In this document: positions 3,922-63,284 of the stretch, piece by piece
Layout: every line of letters begins with the position of its first letter
How positions within the stretch are numbered: the first letter of the stretch is position 1
Assembly: GCA_944391515.1 (NCBI GenBank)
Contig: CALXTW010000005.1
Coordinates: 5,127-69,126 of the forward strand
Direction of reading: 5' to 3'
DNA from: an uncultured Alphaproteobacteria bacterium
Lineage (GTDB): Bacteria > Pseudomonadota > Alphaproteobacteria > RF32 > CAG-239
Length of the DNA stretch: 64,000 nt
Notes under the pieces: generated by a model
Database searches by the model: none
What the model was told of the DNA's origin: nothing
Seen by the model: only the letters and a program-made list of their open reading frames with translations
Translations under genes and position numbers: made by a program

Positions 3922-4631
3922 TGTCATTGATTGAGCTTAAAAATATTACAAAATCTTATCCTTTGGATGGATTAAATCTTAAAATTCTGAAAGGTATTTC
4001 TTTGCAAATTAATACCGGAGAATTTGTGGCAATTATGGGACCATCAGGGTCTGGAAAATCAACTTTGATGAATATTTTGGGCTGTTTGGATAAGCCTAGC
4101 AGCGGGCATTATATTTTAGATGGAAAAAATGTTGAAAAGCTCTCTTCCGATGAATTGGCAGAAATCAGAAATCAAAAAATCGGTTTCGTATTTCAGGGGT
4201 TTAATTTACTCTCTCGTACAAGTGCTTTAGAGAATGTTGCGTTGCCGATGGTGTATGCAAATGTGCCGGCAGAGGAAAGACAAGCACGCGCCATAAAAGC
4301 CTTAAAGCAGGTCGGTTTGGAAAAAAGAATGTATCACCAACCAAATCAGCTTTCTGGCGGACAACAACAACGTGTGGCAATTGCCAGAGCCGTGGTAAAT
4401 GAAGCTCCGATTATTTTTGCCGATGAGCCGACGGGTAATTTGGATACCAAAATGAGTGTTGAAATTATGGAGTTGTTTACCAAGCTCAATAAAGATTTGG
4501 GAAGAACCATTATCTTAGTGACACATGAAGAAGATATTGCGCTCTATGCGGATAGAATTATTAAAATTGTTGACGGTGAAATCCATTCCGATGAAAAAGT
4601 AAAAAATAAGAAAGTTGTGGCACATGATTGA
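3921..4631 (+). CDS. ABC transporter ATP-binding protein (MacB/LolD-like)
   Basis: Walker [10 protein letters not shown], signature [14 protein letters not shown], Walker B IIFADEPT and H-loop VTHE. Confidence 0.93.
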
Positions 4632-16691: not shown

Positions 16692-16719
16692 CCGTTTCCC
16701 TTTCTGTTTGATAAGGGCC

Positions 16720-17017
16720 GTTCTGTTGCTAGGTGGCCCAAACCCCACTTACGACTATCCAAAGTCATAAGAATTTAGATTTGTCGCTTTAGACTAAGCA
16801 GCCAAAGCAACTGGAGCTACGTTATTATCGTTAGCATTCATTTTAATTTGAACCGATAACGGTGGTATCTCACCGGACACAGCTCATATCTTTACTGCTC
16901 CCAGTCAATCCTGTTTCACCCCCGAAGATTTTTAATTGGTGGAGGTGCCGGGTACTGCCCCCGGGTCCTAAAAGCCTATTTTATACTGCCTCTAGTGTCA
17001 TAGCTGATTTCTCAGCG
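16720..17017 (-). ncRNA. ssrA: Two-piece (circularly permuted) tmRNA gene; ends approximate
   Basis: Read on the minus strand. The acceptor piece ends ...GGACCCGGGGGCAGTACCCGGCACCTCCACCA at 16937. After a 13-nt linker the coding piece starts GGGGGTGAAACAGGATTGACTGGGAGCAG at 16923. GGGGGUG pairs with CACCUCC and includes G3:U70. The tag ORF GCT AAC GAT AAT AAC GTA GCT CCA GTT GCT TTG GCT GCT TAG encodes ANDNNVAPVALAA (16835-16794). Confidence 0.9.
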
Positions 17018-17023
17018 GAAAAT

Positions 17024-17052
17024 AGTATAGCTTTAATCTTGTGAGATTTCAA
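17024..17052 (-). promoter_or_regulatory. Sigma-70 promoter of ssrA
   Basis: On the minus strand: TTGAAA (17052-17047), 17-nt spacer, TATACT (17029-17024). Confidence 0.6.
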
Positions 17053-17162
17053 GTGAATTAGTTGAAGCGAACAGATGTTTTATTGACAAAATGCTAATTA
17101 TTGCTAATATTGAGCTCATTATTTTATTTTTATGTCAAATTTAACTTAAAACTTATCTTATT

Positions 17163-30815: not shown

Positions 30816-31550
30816 ATGACTAATCAAAAAGATATTTCTGACAATAAAGAGCAAGTTCCCGATTATTATGGGCATAGAAAACGTTTGAAAGAGCGTTTTC
30901 TATTGGGCGGTGGGCGTGATATGCCCGATTATGAATTATTGGAACTCTTGTTAATGCTCTCAATTCCCAGAAAAGATGTTAAACCTTTGGCTAAGCAGCT
31001 CTTGGCTAAGTTTGGCAGCTTTTCTGCGGTGATTAATGCGCCGGCTGCCGCTCTTTATGAAGTATCCGGCATTAAGGAAAGCAGTTATATCGTCTTTAAT
31101 ATTGTGCGAGAAGCAGCTGTTCGCTCTAGCTGGGATAGTTTGAAGAATCAAGATGCTCCCGTGATTAATAATTGGGATTCTATGCTGGATTATTGTCGTA
31201 CGGCAATTGGTTACAGAGATGTGGAAGAATTTCGTATTATCTTTTTGGATGTGAAGCTGAAAGTTATTGGGGAAGAAGTTCAACAAAGAGGTACAATTAA
31301 CCAAGTGGCAATTCATCCCAGAGAAGTTATTAAGTCCGCTATGCTTCATGGTGCACGTGCCATTATATTGGTTCATAATCATCCCTCAGGTGATGTGACC
31401 CCATCGCGTGCCGATGTAGAAATTACCAATAAAATCAATGTGGCAGCGGCCGCAGTTGGTATTAAATTGTTTGATCATTTGATTGTCAGCAATAGCGGTT
31501 ATTATAGTTTTCAGGAAAAAGGTTTAATTACTGAACCAAAAATTATATAA
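30816..31550 (+). CDS. radC: RadC/JAB-domain protein (UPF0758)
   Basis: An N-terminal HhH region and a C-terminal JAMM motif HNHPSGDVTPSRAD. Confidence 0.9.
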   Translation: MTNQKDISDNKEQVPDYYGHRKRLKERFLLGGGRDMPDYELLELLLMLSIPRKDVKPLAKQLLAKFGSFSAVINAPAAALYEVSGIKESSYIVFNIVREAAVRSSWDSLKNQDAPVINNWDSMLDYCRTAIGYRDVEEFRIIFLDVKLKVIGEEVQQRGTINQVAIHPREVIKSAMLHGARAIILVHNHPSGDVTPSRADVEITNKINVAAAAVGIKLFDHLIVSNSGYYSFQEKGLITEPKII

Positions 31551-31613
31551 AAATGCTTGCATTTTATTTTATTTGAGGTAATTTATTTTTCGTGTTAAGA
31601 ATCGAAAGGTCAA

Positions 31614-31690
31614 CGGGACATAGCTCAGCCTGGTAGAGCGCTTGCTTTGGGAGCAAGATGCCGACGGTTCGAATCCGCCTGTCCCGACCA
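31614..31690 (+). tRNA. tRNA-Pro (anticodon TGG), CCA encoded
   Basis: Cloverleaf read by hand: acceptor cgggaca/tgtcccg, anticodon stem cttgc/gcaag with loop tTTGGGa, and T-arm ccgacGGTTCGAATCcgcc. Confidence 0.9.
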
Positions 31691-31708
31691 CCTAGATTTT
31701 TTTCAGAT

Positions 31709-31785
31709 GCGCCCTTAGCTCAGCTGGATAGAGCAACAGCCTTCTAAGCTGTGGGTCAGACGTTCGAATCGTCTAGGGCGCGCCA
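31709..31785 (+). tRNA. tRNA-Arg (anticodon TCT), CCA encoded
   Basis: Acceptor gcgccct/agggcgc, anticodon stem cagcc/gctgt region with loop cTTCTAa, and T-arm agacgTTCGAATcgtct. Confidence 0.9.
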
Positions 31786-31793
31786 TAAAAAAA

Positions 31794-32133
31794 GCCTCCA
31801 TCAGCGGAGGCTTTTTTTATGGCGCGGTGAAGGTTGGTTAACGTGCTCAGCCGCGATAGCGGTGCAAGCACGTGTTAACAACCGAACGACTGGCGCAAAT
31901 CGGCTTGTCCGATGCCGCGACACGCCATGCCTCCATCAGCGGAGGCTTTTTTTATGGTGCGGTGAAGGTTGGTTAACGTGCTCAGCCGCGATAGCGGTGC
32001 AAGCACGTGTTAACAACCGAACGACTGGCGCAAATCGGCTTGTCCGATGCCGCGACACGCCATGCCTCCATCAGCGGAGGCTTTTTTTATGGCGCGGTGA
32101 AGGTTGGTTAACGTGCTTAGCCGCGACAGCGGT
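31794..32133 (+). repeat. Tandem repeat, 135-bp unit x about 2.5, starting at the tRNA-Arg terminator hairpin
   Basis: gcctccatcagcggaggc starts at 31794, 31929 and 32064, an exact 135-bp period. Copies 1 and 2 differ by one base. Copy 3 diverges after about 70 nt. Each copy holds a terminator-like hairpin with a T7 run and a second imperfect hairpin (gttaacgtgct...agcacgtgttaac). Confidence 0.95.
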
Positions 32134-32262
32134 AAACGCGGCGCGTTTAATCGCAAGACTTAGCTGTTTTTACTGTTCGTGCCTAGACACCGCGATGCTG
32201 CTTTTTTCTTTGCTCAATCATTGAGACTTGAGTTTTTTTATAAACGCGGCGCGTTTAATCGC
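32133..32262 (+). repeat. Second, degenerate direct repeat (22-bp exact core taaacgcggcgcgtttaatcgc twice, 108 bp apart)
   Basis: Exact 22-mers at 32133-32154 and 32241-32262. Flanking similarity (ctgttcgtgc) suggests an older duplicated unit. Confidence 0.8.
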
Positions 32263-32430
32263 CAAGCGTAGCACGCTTGACCGCACAAATTGATGACGTG
32301 GCTGTTCGTGCTCTGAAATCGCGTTGCCCTCTCCTTTATCTGTCGTAAATGTCGCTGATACTTCGTTATTGTTTTTTCTTTTGTTTCTTGCTTATTTATG
32401 CTATTCTGTGTTTAAGTTCTTGAAAATAGC

Positions 32431-34008
32431 ATGGAGAATTTTTTTATGGCGGAAATGATTAAAGAAGAAGTTGTTACTTTCGAACAATGTGACTTTGATG
32501 CTCAAAGAAATATGGTTGTTCAGTATTTTTCAGATGGAAGTAAAATTGAATTAACCAAAAGAGGGGAGAAAGTGGCTTTTAAAAAAGTTATTCATGCAGA
32601 CGAAAGCTATGAATTATATAATGCCAAACAAGTTAAAATTGAAGAACTGACCGGTGACGGAACAAAAAGAAAATTTGACGGTGTTTCCGGTATCTTGCTA
32701 GAAGAGATATGTAAAGATGGAAGTGTTACAAGCTTTCATGCAAACGGGAATATTTCATCACGGAGATGGAATAATAATTCTTGTTATGTTAGCTATTATG
32801 AAAACGGGCAATTAGCACGCAAACAAGAAGATGGATATGAAATTTCTTTGAACTCTAAAGGTGTGGTTAATTATGAGTTTAAGGATGGAAAATTAACAAT
32901 CAATCCAGATTATTTTTCCTTGTATCGATTGGGAGTCAAAATTCCTCAAAGTGAAACTCATTGGGAAGAAAAGGGCGCTCTTTCTCCTAAAAAAAAGACG
33001 TTGTTGTGTTTGGGCGGAGATCAATCCAAAACGGCTAAATCCGCTAATGGAAATATTAAACCTTTTTTGTTTGTGTTGGGGTTGTCTCCGGAACAAATTG
33101 ATAATATGCAACTGTGTTCTTGTTACCGCCCTTTAAGTATGGAACTTAATAGCTTACTTGTTGAAGCAGAGCAGTATGAGCAACAATTTCATGATGATTA
33201 CAAACGAGAGATTTTGCAAAAATTTATGCCTTTTATGGCACAAGTGAAAAATGGAAAATTGGAGAAATATAGTTCTGAAGAGCTTTGTGCGAATTTCAGA
33301 AATATCATTATTCAAGCTCATTGTTATGGAGCTAATGATTTGCCGGTCTATTCTCAAGTGTTTAAGGAAGCCATGACCTCGCTGGGCTATTCTCAAAAAG
33401 AACAGAAAAATGCTTTACGCCAGGTTATCTGTATTACCAATAATTCTCAACGAGAATTTAGAGATAATTTAGGTTTTACCATGATTCATCGCTATTCGGT
33501 GAAAGATGGTCAATTTGAACCTGAATATGAAACCAAATTTTCCGATGGTTATCCTGAATTTTTGAAAGATATTGCTGAATATACCGCTCAAAAAGGTGAA
33601 AAAGCGGCCTTTGTTCCAATGAAGAATAATGAAGTCTTGATGGTGTTTGATAAGGTTTTGATTGACGGTGGTGAGCATAATGCTGGTTTTTGGACGACAA
33701 ACGAAAATAATTTAACAGAAGTAGGAAGAAAACAAGCCTTGCTTATGAAGAATATTGGAACATTTTGGTATAATAATCAAAAAGATTTGCCTGATGTTGT
33801 TAATTTATTAGAAGAATGTTCAAAGCAAAACGGTTTGGAAGATTTTGTTCAAAACTCTCTCCAACAAGGTAAAAAACTCAAAAAAAGTCAACATAATGTT
33901 TTGGAAAATCGACATATTTTGAAAAGTGCCAAAAATAAGTTTAAAAGCCCTGATTATGAGCCTGAGAAAACTGGTATTTATAAATTGCTTTCGCAAAATG
34001 TGAGATAA
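32431..34008 (+). CDS. Hypothetical 525-aa protein with N-terminal MORN/YwqK-like repeats and an unassigned C-terminal domain
   Basis: Repeats of the type ...DGS.I.L...GE.V.F..., FHANGNISSRRWNNNSCYVSYYENGQLARKQ in the first ~170 aa. The remainder has no recognised motif. ATG at 32446 is an alternative start. Confidence 0.65.
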   Translation: MENFFMAEMIKEEVVTFEQCDFDAQRNMVVQYFSDGSKIELTKRGEKVAFKKVIHADESYELYNAKQVKIEELTGDGTKRKFDGVSGILLEEICKDGSVTSFHANGNISSRRWNNNSCYVSYYENGQLARKQEDGYEISLNSKGVVNYEFKDGKLTINPDYFSLYRLGVKIPQSETHWEEKGALSPKKKTLLCLGGDQSKTAKSANGNIKPFLFVLGLSPEQIDNMQLCSCYRPLSMELNSLLVEAEQYEQQFHDDYKREILQKFMPFMAQVKNGKLEKYSSEELCANFRNIIIQAHCYGANDLPVYSQVFKEAMTSLGYSQKEQKNALRQVICITNNSQREFRDNLGFTMIHRYSVKDGQFEPEYETKFSDGYPEFLKDIAEYTAQKGEKAAFVPMKNNEVLMVFDKVLIDGGEHNAGFWTTNENNLTEVGRKQALLMKNIGTFWYNNQKDLPDVVNLLEECSKQNGLEDFVQNSLQQGKKLKKSQHNVLENRHILKSAKNKFKSPDYEPEKTGIYKLLSQNVR

Positions 34009-34197: not shown

Positions 34198-34533
34198 TTA
34201 TTTGCAGCTTTTTACGGCTTCATAGATTTTTTTGAAGGCTTCGGCAACACCTTCGGCAGTATAGGTGCGACCTTCAATCATGGTGCGGCAGAGTTCAAAA
34301 GCAATTTCTTTATCGGAATTACAACCGCATCCGCAATCGCAATCACAATCGCATTCGCAACTGCACGGGCAGAGGTTGTTCTCATGGCAGCCACAGCCGC
34401 ACTCACAATCACAATCGCAACCGCAAGGGCAGGGATTGTCTTCTCGGCAACCGCAATCGCAATTTTCATCGCAATGGCAGTGGTGATTGTGTTCTTCTTC
34501 GTGACAACAGCAACAATTTTCGTGTTTTGACAT
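34198..34533 (-). CDS. Cysteine/histidine-rich metallothionein-like protein, 111 aa
   Basis: 28 Cys and 7 His, with 26 of the Cys in residues 7-71 as alternating C-x-C runs. Two internal repeats of C(R/H)E(D/N)N(P/L)CPC(G/S)C... A non-Cys helical C-terminal ~40 aa. AGGAAAGGA lies upstream, 16 nt after the trxB stop. Confidence 0.7.
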   Translation of the reverse strand: MSKHENCCCCHEEEHNHHCHCDENCDCGCREDNPCPCGCDCDCECGCGCHENNLCPCSCECDCDCDCGCGCNSDKEIAFELCRTMIEGRTYTAEGVAEAFKKIYEAVKSCK

Positions 34534-46120: not shown

Positions 46121-46260
46121 TTTGTTTTTGTTACCAGATTAATCCTAGTAAAAGACATAACAAATATAATTTAAGAAATAGTTACATAACCTGTTGGTAT
46201 GTTAAAAAGCTCTTGACTATGATGATAAATTGTCATAGTTTCTTGCCTGTGATAGTTACG

Positions 46261-46337
46261 GGCCCATAGCTCAGTTGGTTAGAGCAGGCCGCTCATAACG
46301 GTCTGGTCGTTGGTTCGAGTCCATCTGGGCCCACCAT
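46261..46337 (+). tRNA. tRNA with anticodon CAT (elongator Met or lysidine-modified Ile2; cannot be distinguished by eye), CCA encoded
   Basis: Acceptor gggccca/tgggccc, anticodon stem ggccg/cggtc with loop cTCATAa, and T-arm gttgGTTCGAGTCcatc. Confidence 0.88.
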
Positions 46338-62786: not shown

Positions 62787-62872
62787 GCGGCCGTGGCGAA
62801 ATTGGTAGACGCGTAACGTTGAGGTCGTTATGAGCTAAGCTCATGGAAGTTCAAGTCTTCTCGGCCGCACCA
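62787..62872 (+). tRNA. tRNA-Leu (anticodon GAG), class II with long variable arm, CCA encoded
   Basis: Acceptor gcggccg/cggccgc, anticodon stem taacg/cgtta with loop tTGAGGt, variable arm gagctaagctc, and T-arm ggaagTTCAAGTcttct. Confidence 0.9.
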
Positions 62873-63284
62873 TACAAAAATAATGTTATGAGCAAGTGCC
62901 TCGGGAGGTATGAGAGCAGGGTTTTGGCTCAGAAGACTATCCCCTCAAAGATGTAACGCTTGCTGCGACCATTGTCATTGGTCTGGCGCGCTAACATCTC
63001 AAGGATTGTTTCGTAAAAACTCAACGTTGGTTGACTTTTTACTCACAATTCTCGGCCGCACCATACAAAAATAATGTTAGGAGCAAGTGCCTTGGGTAGT
63101 ATGAGAGTAGGGTTTTGGCTCAGAAGACTATCCCCTCAAAGATGTAACGCTTGCTGCGACCATTGTCATTGGTCTGGCGCGCTAACATCTCAAGGATTGT
63201 TTCGTAAAAACTCAACGTTGGTTGACTTTTTACTCACAATTCTCGGCCGCACCATACAAAAATAATGTTAGGAGCAAGTGCCTC
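62858..63284 (+). repeat. Tandem repeat, 191-bp unit x about 2.2, each unit bounded by a copy of the last 15 nt of tRNA-Leu
   Basis: ttctcggccgcacca occurs at 62858-62872 (the tRNA 3' end), 63049-63063 and 63240-63254. The distal ~140 bp of units 1 and 2 are identical, and a few substitutions cluster in the first ~50 bp. The third copy stops about 30 bp after the 15-mer. Confidence 0.95.

Follow-up and report, generated by a model that had tools for sequence, protein, structure and literature searches.

The window analysed here is a 64,000-nucleotide stretch of DNA from an uncultured alphaproteobacterium which we refer to as species 1, with species 2–4 being other species of the same group and the outgroup a more distant relative (coordinates are window positions, and all features are on the forward strand except for one palindrome which is given without strand). 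It carries a tRNA-Pro/tRNA-Arg operon with tRNA-Pro(TGG) at 31614–31690 and tRNA-Arg(TCT) at 31709–31785, both identified by ARAGORN and matched by the Rfam tRNA model (64.8 and 66.7 bits, respectively), and the CCA of tRNA-Arg is encoded at 31783–31785. A putative promoter for the operon at 31557–31584 (TTGCAT, 16 nt, TAATTT) was missed by a consensus promoter scan, and in the other species we read, the pattern TTGCA(T/A)-N16-TA(A/G)(T/G)(T/G)T is found at the equivalent position 3' of the stop codon of RadC. Directly behind tRNA-Arg, the last tRNA of the operon, and starting 9 nt 3' of its CCA, is a head-to-tail array at 31794–32133 with a period of 135 bp and 2.5 (2.52) copies (98% matches and a score of 659 in TRF), which has a GC content of 0.574 compared with 0.392 for the window. 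The 2.52-copy structure recurs in two more independent metagenome assemblies (L001 and L002). ARAGORN and TRF agree with the original prediction of a tRNA-Arg(TCT) followed by a 135-bp tandem array, which was made from the sequence alone, and all of its statements about the sequence itself hold.

Repeat unit 1 (31794–31928, 135 bp; recovered by TRF, as repeat family D1 and by nhmmer with an E-value of 2e-32) opens with a hairpin plus T7 (31794–31818) which is followed by ATGGCGCGGT (31819–31828), a body (31829–31920) and a vestigial tRNA 3' end, CACGCCAT (31921–31928), this being the echo of the tRNA end that the prediction had pointed out. Unit 2 (31929–32063, 135 bp) is 99% identical to unit 1 with a single C>T substitution (T at 31958) within ATGG[C/T]GCGG, and its hairpin plus T7 (31929–31953) has no A-run ahead of it. 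The partial unit 3 (32064–32133, 70 nt or 0.52 of a unit) has the hairpin plus T7 (32064–32088), then ATGGCGCGGT and just 35 nt from the start of the body in which two bases are substituted, and stops at a GCGGT junction. Internal copies of the tRNA end are 8 nt long, CACGCCAT compared with the tRNA's own GCGCGCCAT, and without an A-run, while ATGGCGCGG, the complement of the tRNA end, is located directly behind the hairpin plus T7 in each unit. The repeat search also confirmed that the 18-nt hairpin, GCCTCC-ATCAGC-GGAGGC, begins 9 nt after the CCA and recurs as had been described, with exactly three occurrences in 64 kb (31794, 31929 and 32064) where 0.03 would be expected.

All three hairpins have the sequence attributes of an intrinsic terminator (a 6-bp stem with five G-C pairs, a 6-nt loop and T7), and a terminator scan lists two of them, with the first having the same sequence plus A7/T7 pairing. 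The predicted energy of this first hairpin with its A7/U7 extension is -17.8 kcal/mol compared with -11.8 kcal/mol for an internal copy. It lies at the centre of a perfect 48-nt palindrome (31779–31826) made up of the CGCGCCAT tRNA 3' end, A7, the hairpin, T7 and ATGGCGCG, in which the two 21-nt arms (31779–31799 and 31806–31826) are 100% complementary around a 6-nt loop, and this bears out the palindrome of about 21 bp proposed for copy 1 and the tRNA 3' end. The palindrome has a folding energy of -37.5 kcal/mol as RNA (z -10.7) and -25.9 kcal/mol as DNA, and in the predicted read-through RNA the tRNA acceptor stem is intact with an 18-bp hairpin beginning directly behind it. Judged by its sequence, the palindrome appears to join a bidirectional terminator to the end of the tRNA. 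The bidirectional intrinsic terminators of tRNA operons similarly consist of an A-run, a GC-rich hairpin and a T-run directly after the CCA, and plain examples are found behind the tRNA-Met (46260–46336) in the window and the outgroup tRNA-Arg, but these differ from the structure here which is repeated three times and has a symmetry that reaches 8 nt past the A/T runs into the acceptor strand.

Folding of the whole unit gave an MFE of -60.2 kcal/mol with z -3.6 to -4.0, and none of 200 shuffles folded as well. The long imperfect hairpin claimed for the unit body is present in the MFE structure (unit 1, 31822–31896; GGTTGGTTAACGTGCT / AGCACGTGTTAACAACC around CCGC-GATA-GCGG), and as it was not recovered in the homologous species 2 unit, we regard it as species-specific. 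A small second hairpin which we read from the sequence (31899–31913; ATCGG-CTTGT-CCGAT) is found just ahead of the tRNA-3'-like end, and a hairpin of different sequence occupies the equivalent position in species 2–4; the folding energies of these segments are no better than those of shuffles (z -0.3 to -2.2). A conserved body fold was rejected, with the long hairpin missing in species 2 and the second hairpin not significant, and the comparative alignment that had been proposed as a check on the hairpins likewise gave a body almost without invariant columns. The block AACCGAACGACTGGCGC (31880–31896) is kept in species 1–3 according to the species 1/2 and four-species alignments, and bears a weak resemblance to the tRNA-Arg T-arm in reverse complement. 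With the reverse-complemented tRNA-Arg, local matches were also found in species 2 (11/12, p about 0.03) and species 3 (29 nt), and the global test was not significant for species 1 or 2. We rejected the possibility that the unit is a mosaic of tRNA-Arg fragments: the local matches are suggestive in species 2–4, but species 4 alone gave a significant global test, in part because of its 19-nt tRNA end (see below), and we take this similarity as a hint about origin only. A tRNA-like RNA or pseudogene was also rejected, with searches of the species 1, 3 and 4 arrays using the tRNA model returning only true tRNAs at E≤5–10, and the similarities to tRNA-Arg being just short and local.

The array is followed by a second, degenerate repeat (32133–32272) whose two cores, at 32133 and 32241, are palindromic and read TAAACGCG-G-CGCGTTTA followed by ATCGC, in agreement with the older-looking direct repeat with 22-bp exact cores noted earlier. 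The cores are 108 bp apart and the two copies (32133–32164 and 32241–32272) are 88% identical over 32 nt with the first 22 exact, and the first copy ends with an AT-rich hairpin and T7 (about 32205–32240). The copy number of this repeat is strain-variable, with L014 having a single copy and L008 a larger deletion, and L007 and L026 have additional copies of the module after the second repeat. The downstream co-directional gene (32431–34008) encodes 520/525 aa with no Pfam domain on record, and its start, GGAGAA-T7-ATGGCG (32433–32451), echoes the hairpin arm, T7 and ATGGCG of the unit (repeat family D2). This gene is also strain-variable, being missing in L007 and L011 and truncated in L026.

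The ORF listing for the window includes a 157-aa reading frame (31751–32224) which stays open through the array because 135 bp is equivalent to 45 codons. The gene annotations of L001 and L002 include it, and a public protein record exists. If this were a real repeat protein, comparable to the tpr of the E. coli tyrT repeats, it could account for the period being divisible by three (as is the 141-bp period of species 2), the predictions made by gene callers, and the GGAGG found 8 nt ahead of an ATG in every unit. However, the frame from this ATG closes after three codons (ATG GCG CGG TGA), the ORF begins within the tRNA, the species 2 sequence (read by eye) has stops in all three forward frames, and the periods of species 3 and 4 (142–143 and 159–160 bp) are not divisible by three. 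As no relative besides the ORF itself was found among 5.8 billion proteins, we consider it almost certainly spurious.

The number of hairpins per contig varies from one to four within species. In species 1, a 1.26-copy allele with 135+36 bp fewer and a unique junction, ATGGCGCGGT/AAACGC, at 5-nt GCGGT repeats was found in four independent assemblies (L004, L008, L011/L025 and L026). We also found minimal contigs with 0.5–0.7 copies, and it should be noted that these are what a de Bruijn assembler gives by skipping the repeat cycle and may represent collapse. The unit length is near the read length, several contigs terminate in or beside arrays (L003, L005, L020–L022 and L024) and there are N gaps inside the first hairpin of species 3 scaffolds, all of which would be expected if the array or its variation were an artefact of short-read metagenome assembly. 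We find this very improbable given that three independent assemblies agree on the 2.52-copy structure down to the substitutions specific to each copy, the junction of the 1.26-copy allele is shared by four, a 1.89-Mb species 3 contig has 1.5 copies, arrays are present in four species, and the E. coli analogue is variable among complete genomes. The copy number thus differs between strains, with the reservation that some of the minimal alleles may be due to assembly collapse.

Comparison with related species identified homologous arrays behind the same tRNA-Arg in species 2 (RadC and SfsA with 75% and 64% aa identity; 141 bp and up to 3.7 copies), species 3 (142–143 bp and 1.5–2.5 copies) and species 4 (159–160 bp and 1.9 copies), with only a plain terminator behind tRNA-Arg in the outgroup, which is the most distant relative we read (RadC with 64% aa identity). 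Copies in one array are 94–99% identical compared with about 65% for species 1 and species 2 units, and the hairpin sequence is uniform in each array (GCCTCC/GGAGGC in species 1 and CTCCCC/GGGGAG in species 2–4). The only invariant columns in the four-species alignment are the T-run, ATGG..CGGT, a short ACG.C and GCCA(T), and these correspond to the terminator plus two images of the tRNA end (ATGG..CGGT is the complement of the CCA-T end). The species 4 unit still has the tRNA sequence from the T-loop to the 3' end (19 nt, AATCGTCTAGGGCGCGCCA) followed by the trailer T, and a degenerate internal tRNA end (..ACGCCAT, no A-run) is common to species 1–3. Species 1 and 2 share identical blocks of 17–19 bases (T7-ATGGYGCGGTGA and AACCGAACGACTG) which are more conserved than the adjoining intergenic DNA, and a C/T polymorphism at ATGG[C/T]GCGG recurs in three species, where a G-U pair with the tRNA end would survive in RNA. 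The lengths of the A-run and T-run covary (A8/T8 in L035 and L044), and decay of the internal hairpins is under way in some alleles of species 2 (TTCCC arm). The original prediction had allowed for an array with no homologs anywhere that was simply a neutral local duplication of the tRNA terminator region, but homologs are found in three other species, and this alternative is too weak as written since four species have either retained this type of array or formed it anew. Such persistence is unlike that of a purely neutral and easily collapsing repeat, and therefore some selection may act on the multi-copy array.

Other tRNAs are also associated with repeats of this kind. In the window, tRNA-Leu(GAG) and its array (62787–63284; tRNA at 62787–62872 and array at 62858–63284) have a 191-bp period and 2.2 copies, with 1.2 copies in other strains, and the unit has the final 15 nt of the tRNA at its start and an A5-stem-T5 hairpin at its end (no Rfam match was found for this array, and the fold has a z of -1.2). 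Both high-scoring long-period arrays in the window start ≤15 nt from one of only four tRNA 3' ends, and by our own arithmetic the probability of this occurring by chance is roughly 1e-5 to 1e-6, which supports the earlier argument that the layout shared by the two loci is not a coincidence. The tRNA-Leu array and the tRNA-Pro repeats found in species 2–4 carry 15–18 nt of their own tRNA 3' end, and at tRNA-Pro in species 3 a clean 'empty' allele (L048) differs from a 'filled' allele (L046) by one 180-nt unit bounded by an 18-nt tRNA end. At three different tRNAs, and also in E. coli, the repeat boundary is located in or just past the T-loop, and simple slippage does not explain this recurrence. 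We note that GAACGACTG is common to the Arg units and a species 4 Pro unit; the suggestion that these belong to one mobile family was rejected as a profile search shows no link.

Searches for further copies, as the original prediction had advised, found none in the window, in a scan of 185,579 species genomes (where a unit 25-mer occurs once per genome and in two MAGs only) or in a profile search of 522 kb, in which the Arg-unit profile recovered tRNA-Arg arrays only and nothing at the Pro or Leu loci. Similarly, a 48-mer allowed up to three mismatches matched nothing in the 64 kb besides the two copies in the array. A dispersed miniature repeat (MITE, REP/BIME or Rickettsia palindromic element) was rejected as these searches gave no copies at unrelated sites, and the single IMG/VR match (L044) is the same chromosomal locus rather than a dispersed element. 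The Rfam covariance search that had also been advised provided no family for the unit at the gathering score over the window or, with the cut-off relaxed to E≤10, for this locus, the one at tRNA-Leu and the species 3 and 4 arrays, with the matches obtained being limited to tRNAs, tmRNA and weak terminator-driven matches to leader families, and RtT (RF00391) in particular had no match at the gathering score (window) or at E≤10 (31550–32450). No promoter-like site was found in or before a unit by a consensus scan, and no Phage_integrase among 20 window ORFs of 250–460 aa or integrase in the precomputed Pfam lists of flanking genes on related contigs.

The closest parallel is provided by the repeats of the E. 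coli tyrT operon (rttR/RtT, RF00391; tpr), where transcription enters the repeats and undergoes Rho-dependent termination, and a 171-nt RNA is processed out. In E. coli K-12 the tyrT/tyrV locus has an array of 178 bp × 3.1 copies which overlaps the tyrV 3' end, and the unit starts with AATCCTTCCCCCACCACCA, the 3' end of tRNA-Tyr, at the same T-loop position as the species 4 repeat. All 5,426 complete E. coli genomes matched the query, and among 60 of these spread evenly down the ranking we found 0–5 annotated RtT copies. In both systems the final tRNA of the operon is followed directly by a tandem array, the E. coli unit has the tRNA 3' end (AATCC...CCA) as does that of species 4 (AATCGTCT...CCA), and there are 2–4 copies plus a fraction which vary between strains (0–5 in E. 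coli and 1–4 hairpins here). They differ in that sequence and covariance-model similarity is absent, the units here open with a strong predicted intrinsic terminator and copy 1 is palindromic with the tRNA end, the internal tRNA end of species 1 has decayed to 8 nt, and the host is an uncultured gut alphaproteobacterium. A literature search on the original tyrT repeats and on tRNA-flanking bacterial tandem repeats provided nothing directly relevant beyond the rttR preprint and the Islander paper. Bacterial minisatellites (VNTRs) are also alike in having periods >100 bp, near-identical copies, strain copy-number change and concerted evolution, but the array here is anchored at a tRNA 3' end, is built from what seems to be a terminator, and is of the same type at the orthologous site in four species.

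We consider it probable that the array is a minisatellite lying distal to its tRNA, like the tyrT/RtT repeats of E. coli, which evolves by unequal recombination and provides at most a series of stacked terminators. Under this explanation, an ancestor would have duplicated the segment running from the tRNA-Arg T-loop through the 3' end and bidirectional terminator to about 100 nt of trailer. Our comparison shows that units of the direct repeats are added and removed and that the copies of any one array are kept alike, and from established knowledge of tandem repeats this would occur by unequal homologous recombination or replication slippage. In species 1 the internal tRNA-end copy would then have decayed to CACGCCAT with the loss of the A-run, and therefore the unit now reads as hairpin plus T7, ATGGCGCGG, a GC-rich spacer and a vestigial tRNA end. 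Transcription of the tRNA-Pro/tRNA-Arg operon would halt mostly at the first and strongest hairpin, and the extra copies may act at most as back-up terminators insulating the downstream co-directional gene and would not be independent genes. Counting against this explanation are the persistence of the array in four species, the 17–19-base blocks common to species 1 and 2, the recurrent C/T polymorphism, the T-loop boundary at several tRNAs, and the minimal contigs that an assembler could produce. The original reading is retained in part: the array is real, non-coincidental, tied to the tRNA 3' end and has a terminator hairpin in each unit, but we do not support tandem RNA genes of about 130 nt, for which we found no promoter-like site, no Rfam family and no long body hairpin kept in species 2, and where the first and strongest terminator precedes every unit body.

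An RNA product nonetheless remains as a minority view because the E. coli repeat of this type yields a processed RNA. Units might specify a functional small RNA in the manner of E. coli rtT or the leuZ 3'ETS, in which case read-through would give a transcript of tRNA-Arg and a single unit that stops at the next terminator, cleavage at the A/U-rich site past the CCA would free an RNA of about 130 nt, and copy number would set the dose. The tRNA 3'ETS sRNAs are similarly trailers behind the last tRNA which end at a terminator and can be released by 3' processing, and this likeness is best for the tRNA-Leu unit with a hairpin at its end; at tRNA-Arg, in contrast, the terminator comes first, the body would be transcribed only by read-through, and a conserved fold was not found. 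A predicted terminator at the end of each unit, the folding of the species 1 unit (z -4.0), the blocks kept between species 1, 2 and 3, and the small hairpin of changing sequence at an equivalent place in all four species all point towards an RNA, as does + strand pairing which some substitutions keep via G-U (AAGTTGT/ACAGCTT in L051, and ATGGTGCG with the tRNA end). The E. coli analogue is also an annotated sRNA, with rttR/RtT reported to be stress-responsive with an unknown mode of action (bioRxiv 10.1101/2024.07.17.603846). We judge a functional small RNA to be unlikely, though, as no promoter-like site was found in the unit, the A7/U7-extended terminator comes before all of the bodies, the long hairpin is not kept in species 2, the second hairpin is no better than shuffles (z -0.3 to -2.2), Rfam has no match at E≤10, RtT included, the body is almost without invariant positions once species 4 is added, and internal hairpins are degenerating in some species 2 alleles.

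The units might otherwise be the scars or miniature non-autonomous cassettes of tyrosine-integrase integration at the tRNA 3' end with crossover in the T-loop, each unit being an attP-like copy of the tRNA end plus terminator which had integrated in tandem. Repeats run from the T-loop to the CCA at tRNA-Arg (species 4), tRNA-Pro (species 2–4) and tRNA-Leu, and this counts for integration as it is the pattern expected of islands in tRNA genes, which one study describes as having a regenerated target plus a displaced fragment (PMC4383910). The one-unit difference between the empty and filled tRNA-Pro alleles of species 3, the presence or absence by strain of the gene beside the tRNA-Arg array, and copy numbers of n plus a fraction, which fit Campbell-type insertion, are also in agreement. 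The direct repeats of islands (Islander-type att sites and cis-mobilisable elements) are alike in having a displaced tRNA 3' end behind an intact tRNA, a T-loop boundary and variable adjoining gene content, but differ from the 135–191-bp repeats here, for which our searches gave no integrase and no units elsewhere and which have degenerate internal tRNA ends in three species. Exact copies of the tRNA 3' end, a feature of att scars, are found at tRNA-Leu and at tRNA-Pro/Arg in other species but not in the tRNA-Arg array here, and ongoing integration in species 1–3 would need to rebuild a mutant tRNA. Furthermore, no Phage_integrase was found among the 20 window ORFs or in the gene lists of related loci, the Arg-unit profile has no relatives at the Pro and Leu loci or elsewhere in 522 kb, the scan of 185,579 species placed the unit 25-mer in just two genomes, once in each, a 135-bp circle is on general grounds implausible as a recombination substrate, and simple recombination between direct repeats also makes empty sites. 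Integration is therefore an improbable explanation, and we rate equally low a dedicated process acting at the T-loop that repeatedly makes and amplifies cassettes of tRNA 3' end, terminator and trailer at Arg, Pro and Leu tRNAs, which are then kept because their read-through transcripts give tRNA-linked regulatory RNAs or tune termination. A recombinase might be responsible, or else structure-specific replication or repair at the palindrome of the tRNA end and terminator, and such a process could perhaps be general and include E. coli RtT.

As a tRNA-distal minisatellite, the array would extend the old and poorly understood tyrT/RtT architecture from the enterobacteria to uncultured human-gut alphaproteobacteria. 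It has practical consequences as the arrays are strain-variable markers that break or collapse short-read assemblies, and this one yields a spurious 157-aa 'protein' that is already in public databases. One T-loop boundary recurs at three different tRNAs, and the four related species with homologous arrays provide a test bed for the origin and any function of these repeats.

On the + strand, downstream of a RadC gene, ARAGORN and Rfam agree on tRNA-Pro(TGG) at 31614–31690 and tRNA-Arg(TCT) at 31709–31785, and the encoded CCA of tRNA-Arg is followed by T, A7 and then the hairpin GCCTCC-ATCAGC-GGAGGC with T7. Tandem Repeats Finder (TRF) reports a 135-bp unit in 2.5 copies at 31794–32133 (98% matches) with a single base difference between copies 1 and 2, and the 64 kb contain exactly three occurrences of the hairpin, where 0.03 would be expected. 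The anticipated palindrome of about 21 bp reaching into the tRNA 3' end has perfectly complementary 21-nt arms (31779–31799 and 31806–31826; RNA fold −37.5 kcal/mol), and the second direct repeat is a 22-nt core at 32133 that returns at 32241. GC content is 0.574 in the array and 0.392 in the window. The layout was also said to recur at tRNA-Leu(GAG) (62787–62872), where we find 2.2 copies of a 191-bp unit, extending to 63284, which takes in the terminal 15 nt of this tRNA. As these features were all re-found in the window, the observation behind the original prediction is confirmed in full.

The 135-bp unit can be divided into the parts H (31794–31828; the hairpin, T7 and ATGGCGCGGT), x (31829–31863) and z (31864–31928). 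The palindrome of copy 1 is perfect because ATGGCGCG in the unit is the exact complement of the tRNA-Arg end CGCGCCAT, while the 3' end of the unit, CACGCCAT, is a degenerate image of that tRNA end and the A-run is missing at internal unit junctions. The isolated unit folds well (z −4.0), with x and z pairing into a long hairpin and a second, small one at 31899–31913. No promoter-like site was found in the unit, and the covariance-model search that had been proposed, run with Rfam, matched no family to the arrays of the window or to those of two related species (species 3 and 4). Every unit also carries GGAGG(C)-T7-ATG GYG CGG TGA (31819–31830, repeated at 31954 and 32089, and seen in species 2), in which a Shine-Dalgarno-like arm lies 8 nt ahead of a mini-ORF of three codons; this arrangement probably arises incidentally from the palindrome with CCA-T.

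Comparison within the species (species 1), using contigs from other assemblies with RadC variants at ≥90% identity, revealed three states between tRNA-Arg and the flank: H x with one hairpin (contigs L007 and L012–L014), H x z H with two (L004, L008, L011/L025 and L026), and H x z H x z H x (the window, L001 and L002). The two-hairpin state, which lacks 171 bp relative to the window and has its junction at a 5-nt GCGGT repeat, is a real allele since four independent assemblies show this distinctive junction together with linked substitutions; the one-hairpin state may or may not be real, as an assembler skipping a repeat cycle would give the same product. Copy number is also variable in the 108-bp repeat downstream and in the module that follows it. 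The rest of the spacer before the 520-aa gene (32133–32360) consists of more repeat modules around a palindromic core, TAAACGCG-G-CGCGTTTA(ATCGC), which could be a candidate protein-binding site; these modules vary in copy number by strain: L014 has lost 108 bp, and L007 and L026 carry additional modules of ~129 nt (L008 is also affected). The arrays of species 1, 2 and 3 all show the same C/T polymorphism at the leading C of GCGC, in ATGG[C/T]GCGG (31823 vs 31958; L026–L045); the site could be prone to recurrent deamination, or the change could be tolerated because a G-U pair preserves the pairing with the tRNA end.

The 520/525-aa protein adjoining the array (32431–34008) has no Pfam domain on record and is present, absent or truncated depending on the strain (the gene is absent from L007 and L011), and the ribosome-binding region of its gene, GGAGAA-T7-ATGGCG, copies the unit's hairpin arm, T7 and ATGGCG. 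Beyond it, a metallothionein-like 111-aa protein (34198–34533, − strand) is largely made of Cys-x-Cys and Cys-Asp-Cys repeats; its coding region overlies short tandem repeats in the DNA (TRF 34312–34360), and its length differs from strain to strain, with 63–94 aa called in other contigs. The window also has a tmRNA (16703–17056, − strand) of the two-piece (permuted) alphaproteobacterial type with the tag ANDNNVAPVALAA.

Homologous arrays follow the orthologous tRNA-Arg in three further species: 0.7 to 3.7 copies of a 141-bp unit in species 2 (amino acid identity RadC 75%, MAP 90%, SfsA 64%), 1.5–2.5 copies of 142–143 bp in species 3 (including a 1.89-Mb contig), and 0.6–1.9 copies of 159–160 bp in species 4, with a plain terminator and no array in the outgroup, the most distant of the relatives read (RadC 64%). 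This pattern is concerted evolution of a tandem array, because copies inside one array are 94–99% identical, the units of species 1 and 2 are only ~65% alike, and the terminator stem is uniform inside each array and entirely different between these species (GCCTCC/GGAGGC vs CTCCCC/GGGGAG). The A- and T-runs are both 8 long in contigs L035 and L044. Columns invariant in the four-species alignment (T-run, ATGG, CGGT, a short ACG.C and GCCA) are the tail of the terminator, the tRNA-end complement and the vestigial tRNA end. AACCGAACGACTG is common to species 1–3 and has a local likeness to the reverse-complemented tRNA T-arm which is not significant overall. When the hairpins were checked across relatives as had been suggested, the long hairpin of species 1 was not recovered in the species 2 unit, and the small hairpin, at the same place in all species, was no better than shuffles.

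Many of the related contigs come from human-gut metagenomes, the proteins of the window are also in ENA/NCBI metagenome assemblies, RadC relatives are in MAGs labelled 'Alphaproteobacteria bacterium' or 'Azospirillum sp.', and the unit is also present in MAGs of uncultured Alphaproteobacteria bacterium. In the species 3 contig L054, the orientation of tRNA-Arg and its hairpin is reversed relative to RadC and there is an extra 188-aa gene, which indicates an inversion at the locus. The 44-kb contig L044 (IMGVR_UViG_3300045988_183517), filed as viral in IMG/VR, holds the chromosomal tRNA-Arg locus of species 2 with an A8/T8 single hairpin; it is either misclassified or has a prophage close to tRNA-Arg.

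Repeats at several tRNAs take in the tRNA 3' end. In species 4 the repeat still opens with the final 19 nt of tRNA-Arg, which start in the T-loop (AATCGTCTAGGGCGCGCCA). The window's tRNA-Leu unit begins with TTCTCGGCCGCACCA, and units after tRNA-Pro in species 2–4 end in ATCCGCCTGTCCCGACCA (degenerate in species 4), with empty, one-unit and multi-unit alleles in species 3. A profile of the Arg unit detected neither the Pro nor the Leu units; the three loci therefore have a common architecture and not a common sequence. The tRNA-Leu unit ends in the hairpin GTAAAAACTCAAC-GTTG-GTTGACTTTTTAC and is present in 1.2 copies in most other strains; in the divergent strain L023 both copies of a 45-nt repeat share the same substitutions, indicating concerted change. 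The tRNA-Pro unit is 160–180 nt (L027 5964–6139; L046 3895–4075; L057 about 3940–4100) and terminates in a duplicate of the tRNA-Pro 3' end, with a ~95-nt core ~95% identical between species 2 and 3, against 64–75% amino acid identity for RadC and SfsA in the sole cross-species comparison (species 1 vs 2). RNAalifold pairs AUAGGCG in this unit with the tRNA fragment CGCCUGU, and the unit may represent a conserved RNA linked to the tRNA. Several species also have a pseudo-tRNA-Pro upstream of tRNA-Pro itself (L045 3758–4256; L051 3815–4030; L055/L056/L057; L060; L068) made up of the first 19 nt of the tRNA, an insert, an anticodon-arm-like GCGCTTGCTTCGGGCTTGAGG and its own terminator, forming a 210-bp × 2.4 array in L045.

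The E. coli K-12 tyrT/tyrV locus has a 178-bp × 3.1 array annotated as rttR and tpr, whose unit begins with AATCCTTCCCCCACCACCA, the 3' end of tRNA-Tyr starting at the same position in the T-loop. Our E. coli query matched all 5,426 complete genomes, and none to five RtT copies are annotated at the locus among the 60 matches listed, which were evenly spread down the ranking; such arrays are thus a known class, whose copy number is polymorphic in E. coli as well. The arrays in the window have no Rfam RtT match and are not members by sequence, and here a strong intrinsic terminator opens every unit, unlike in the tyrT repeats.

Taken as a whole, we consider a tyrT-type tandem-repeat mechanism the probable explanation. 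An ancestor would have partially duplicated the tRNA 3' end, terminator and trailer. That units expand, contract and homogenise is shown by our comparison; the process behind it, from what is established for tandem repeats, would be unequal recombination or replication slippage between units. The 48-nt perfect palindrome may add fragility. The first A7-hairpin-U7 terminator would end most transcripts, leaving later copies as possible back-up terminators ahead of the co-directional gene or with no role.

A processed RNA of the rtT kind, a rival akin to the original reading of the units as RNA genes, finds some encouragement in the blocks conserved between species, the good fold of the species 1 unit and the E. 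coli precedent, but is unlikely given that each unit opens with its terminator and no fold is conserved. Integrase scars or miniature cassettes at tRNA ends might account for the T-loop boundary and the empty and filled alleles, yet degenerate internal tRNA ends are common to three species, no integrase was found among 20 window ORFs of 250–460 aa, and neither a scan of genomes from 185,579 species nor the profile search, over 522 kb, found unit copies elsewhere, making this a distinctly improbable origin. It is very hard to credit the array as an assembly artefact, and the chance that it encodes a real protein is negligible (no relatives were found of the 157-aa ORF running through it). Overall, the array is real, reproducible and evolutionarily persistent but ordinary, a new form of tyrT-type tRNA-distal repeat, and is of moderate interest because the same T-loop boundary is used at several tRNAs and across four species.
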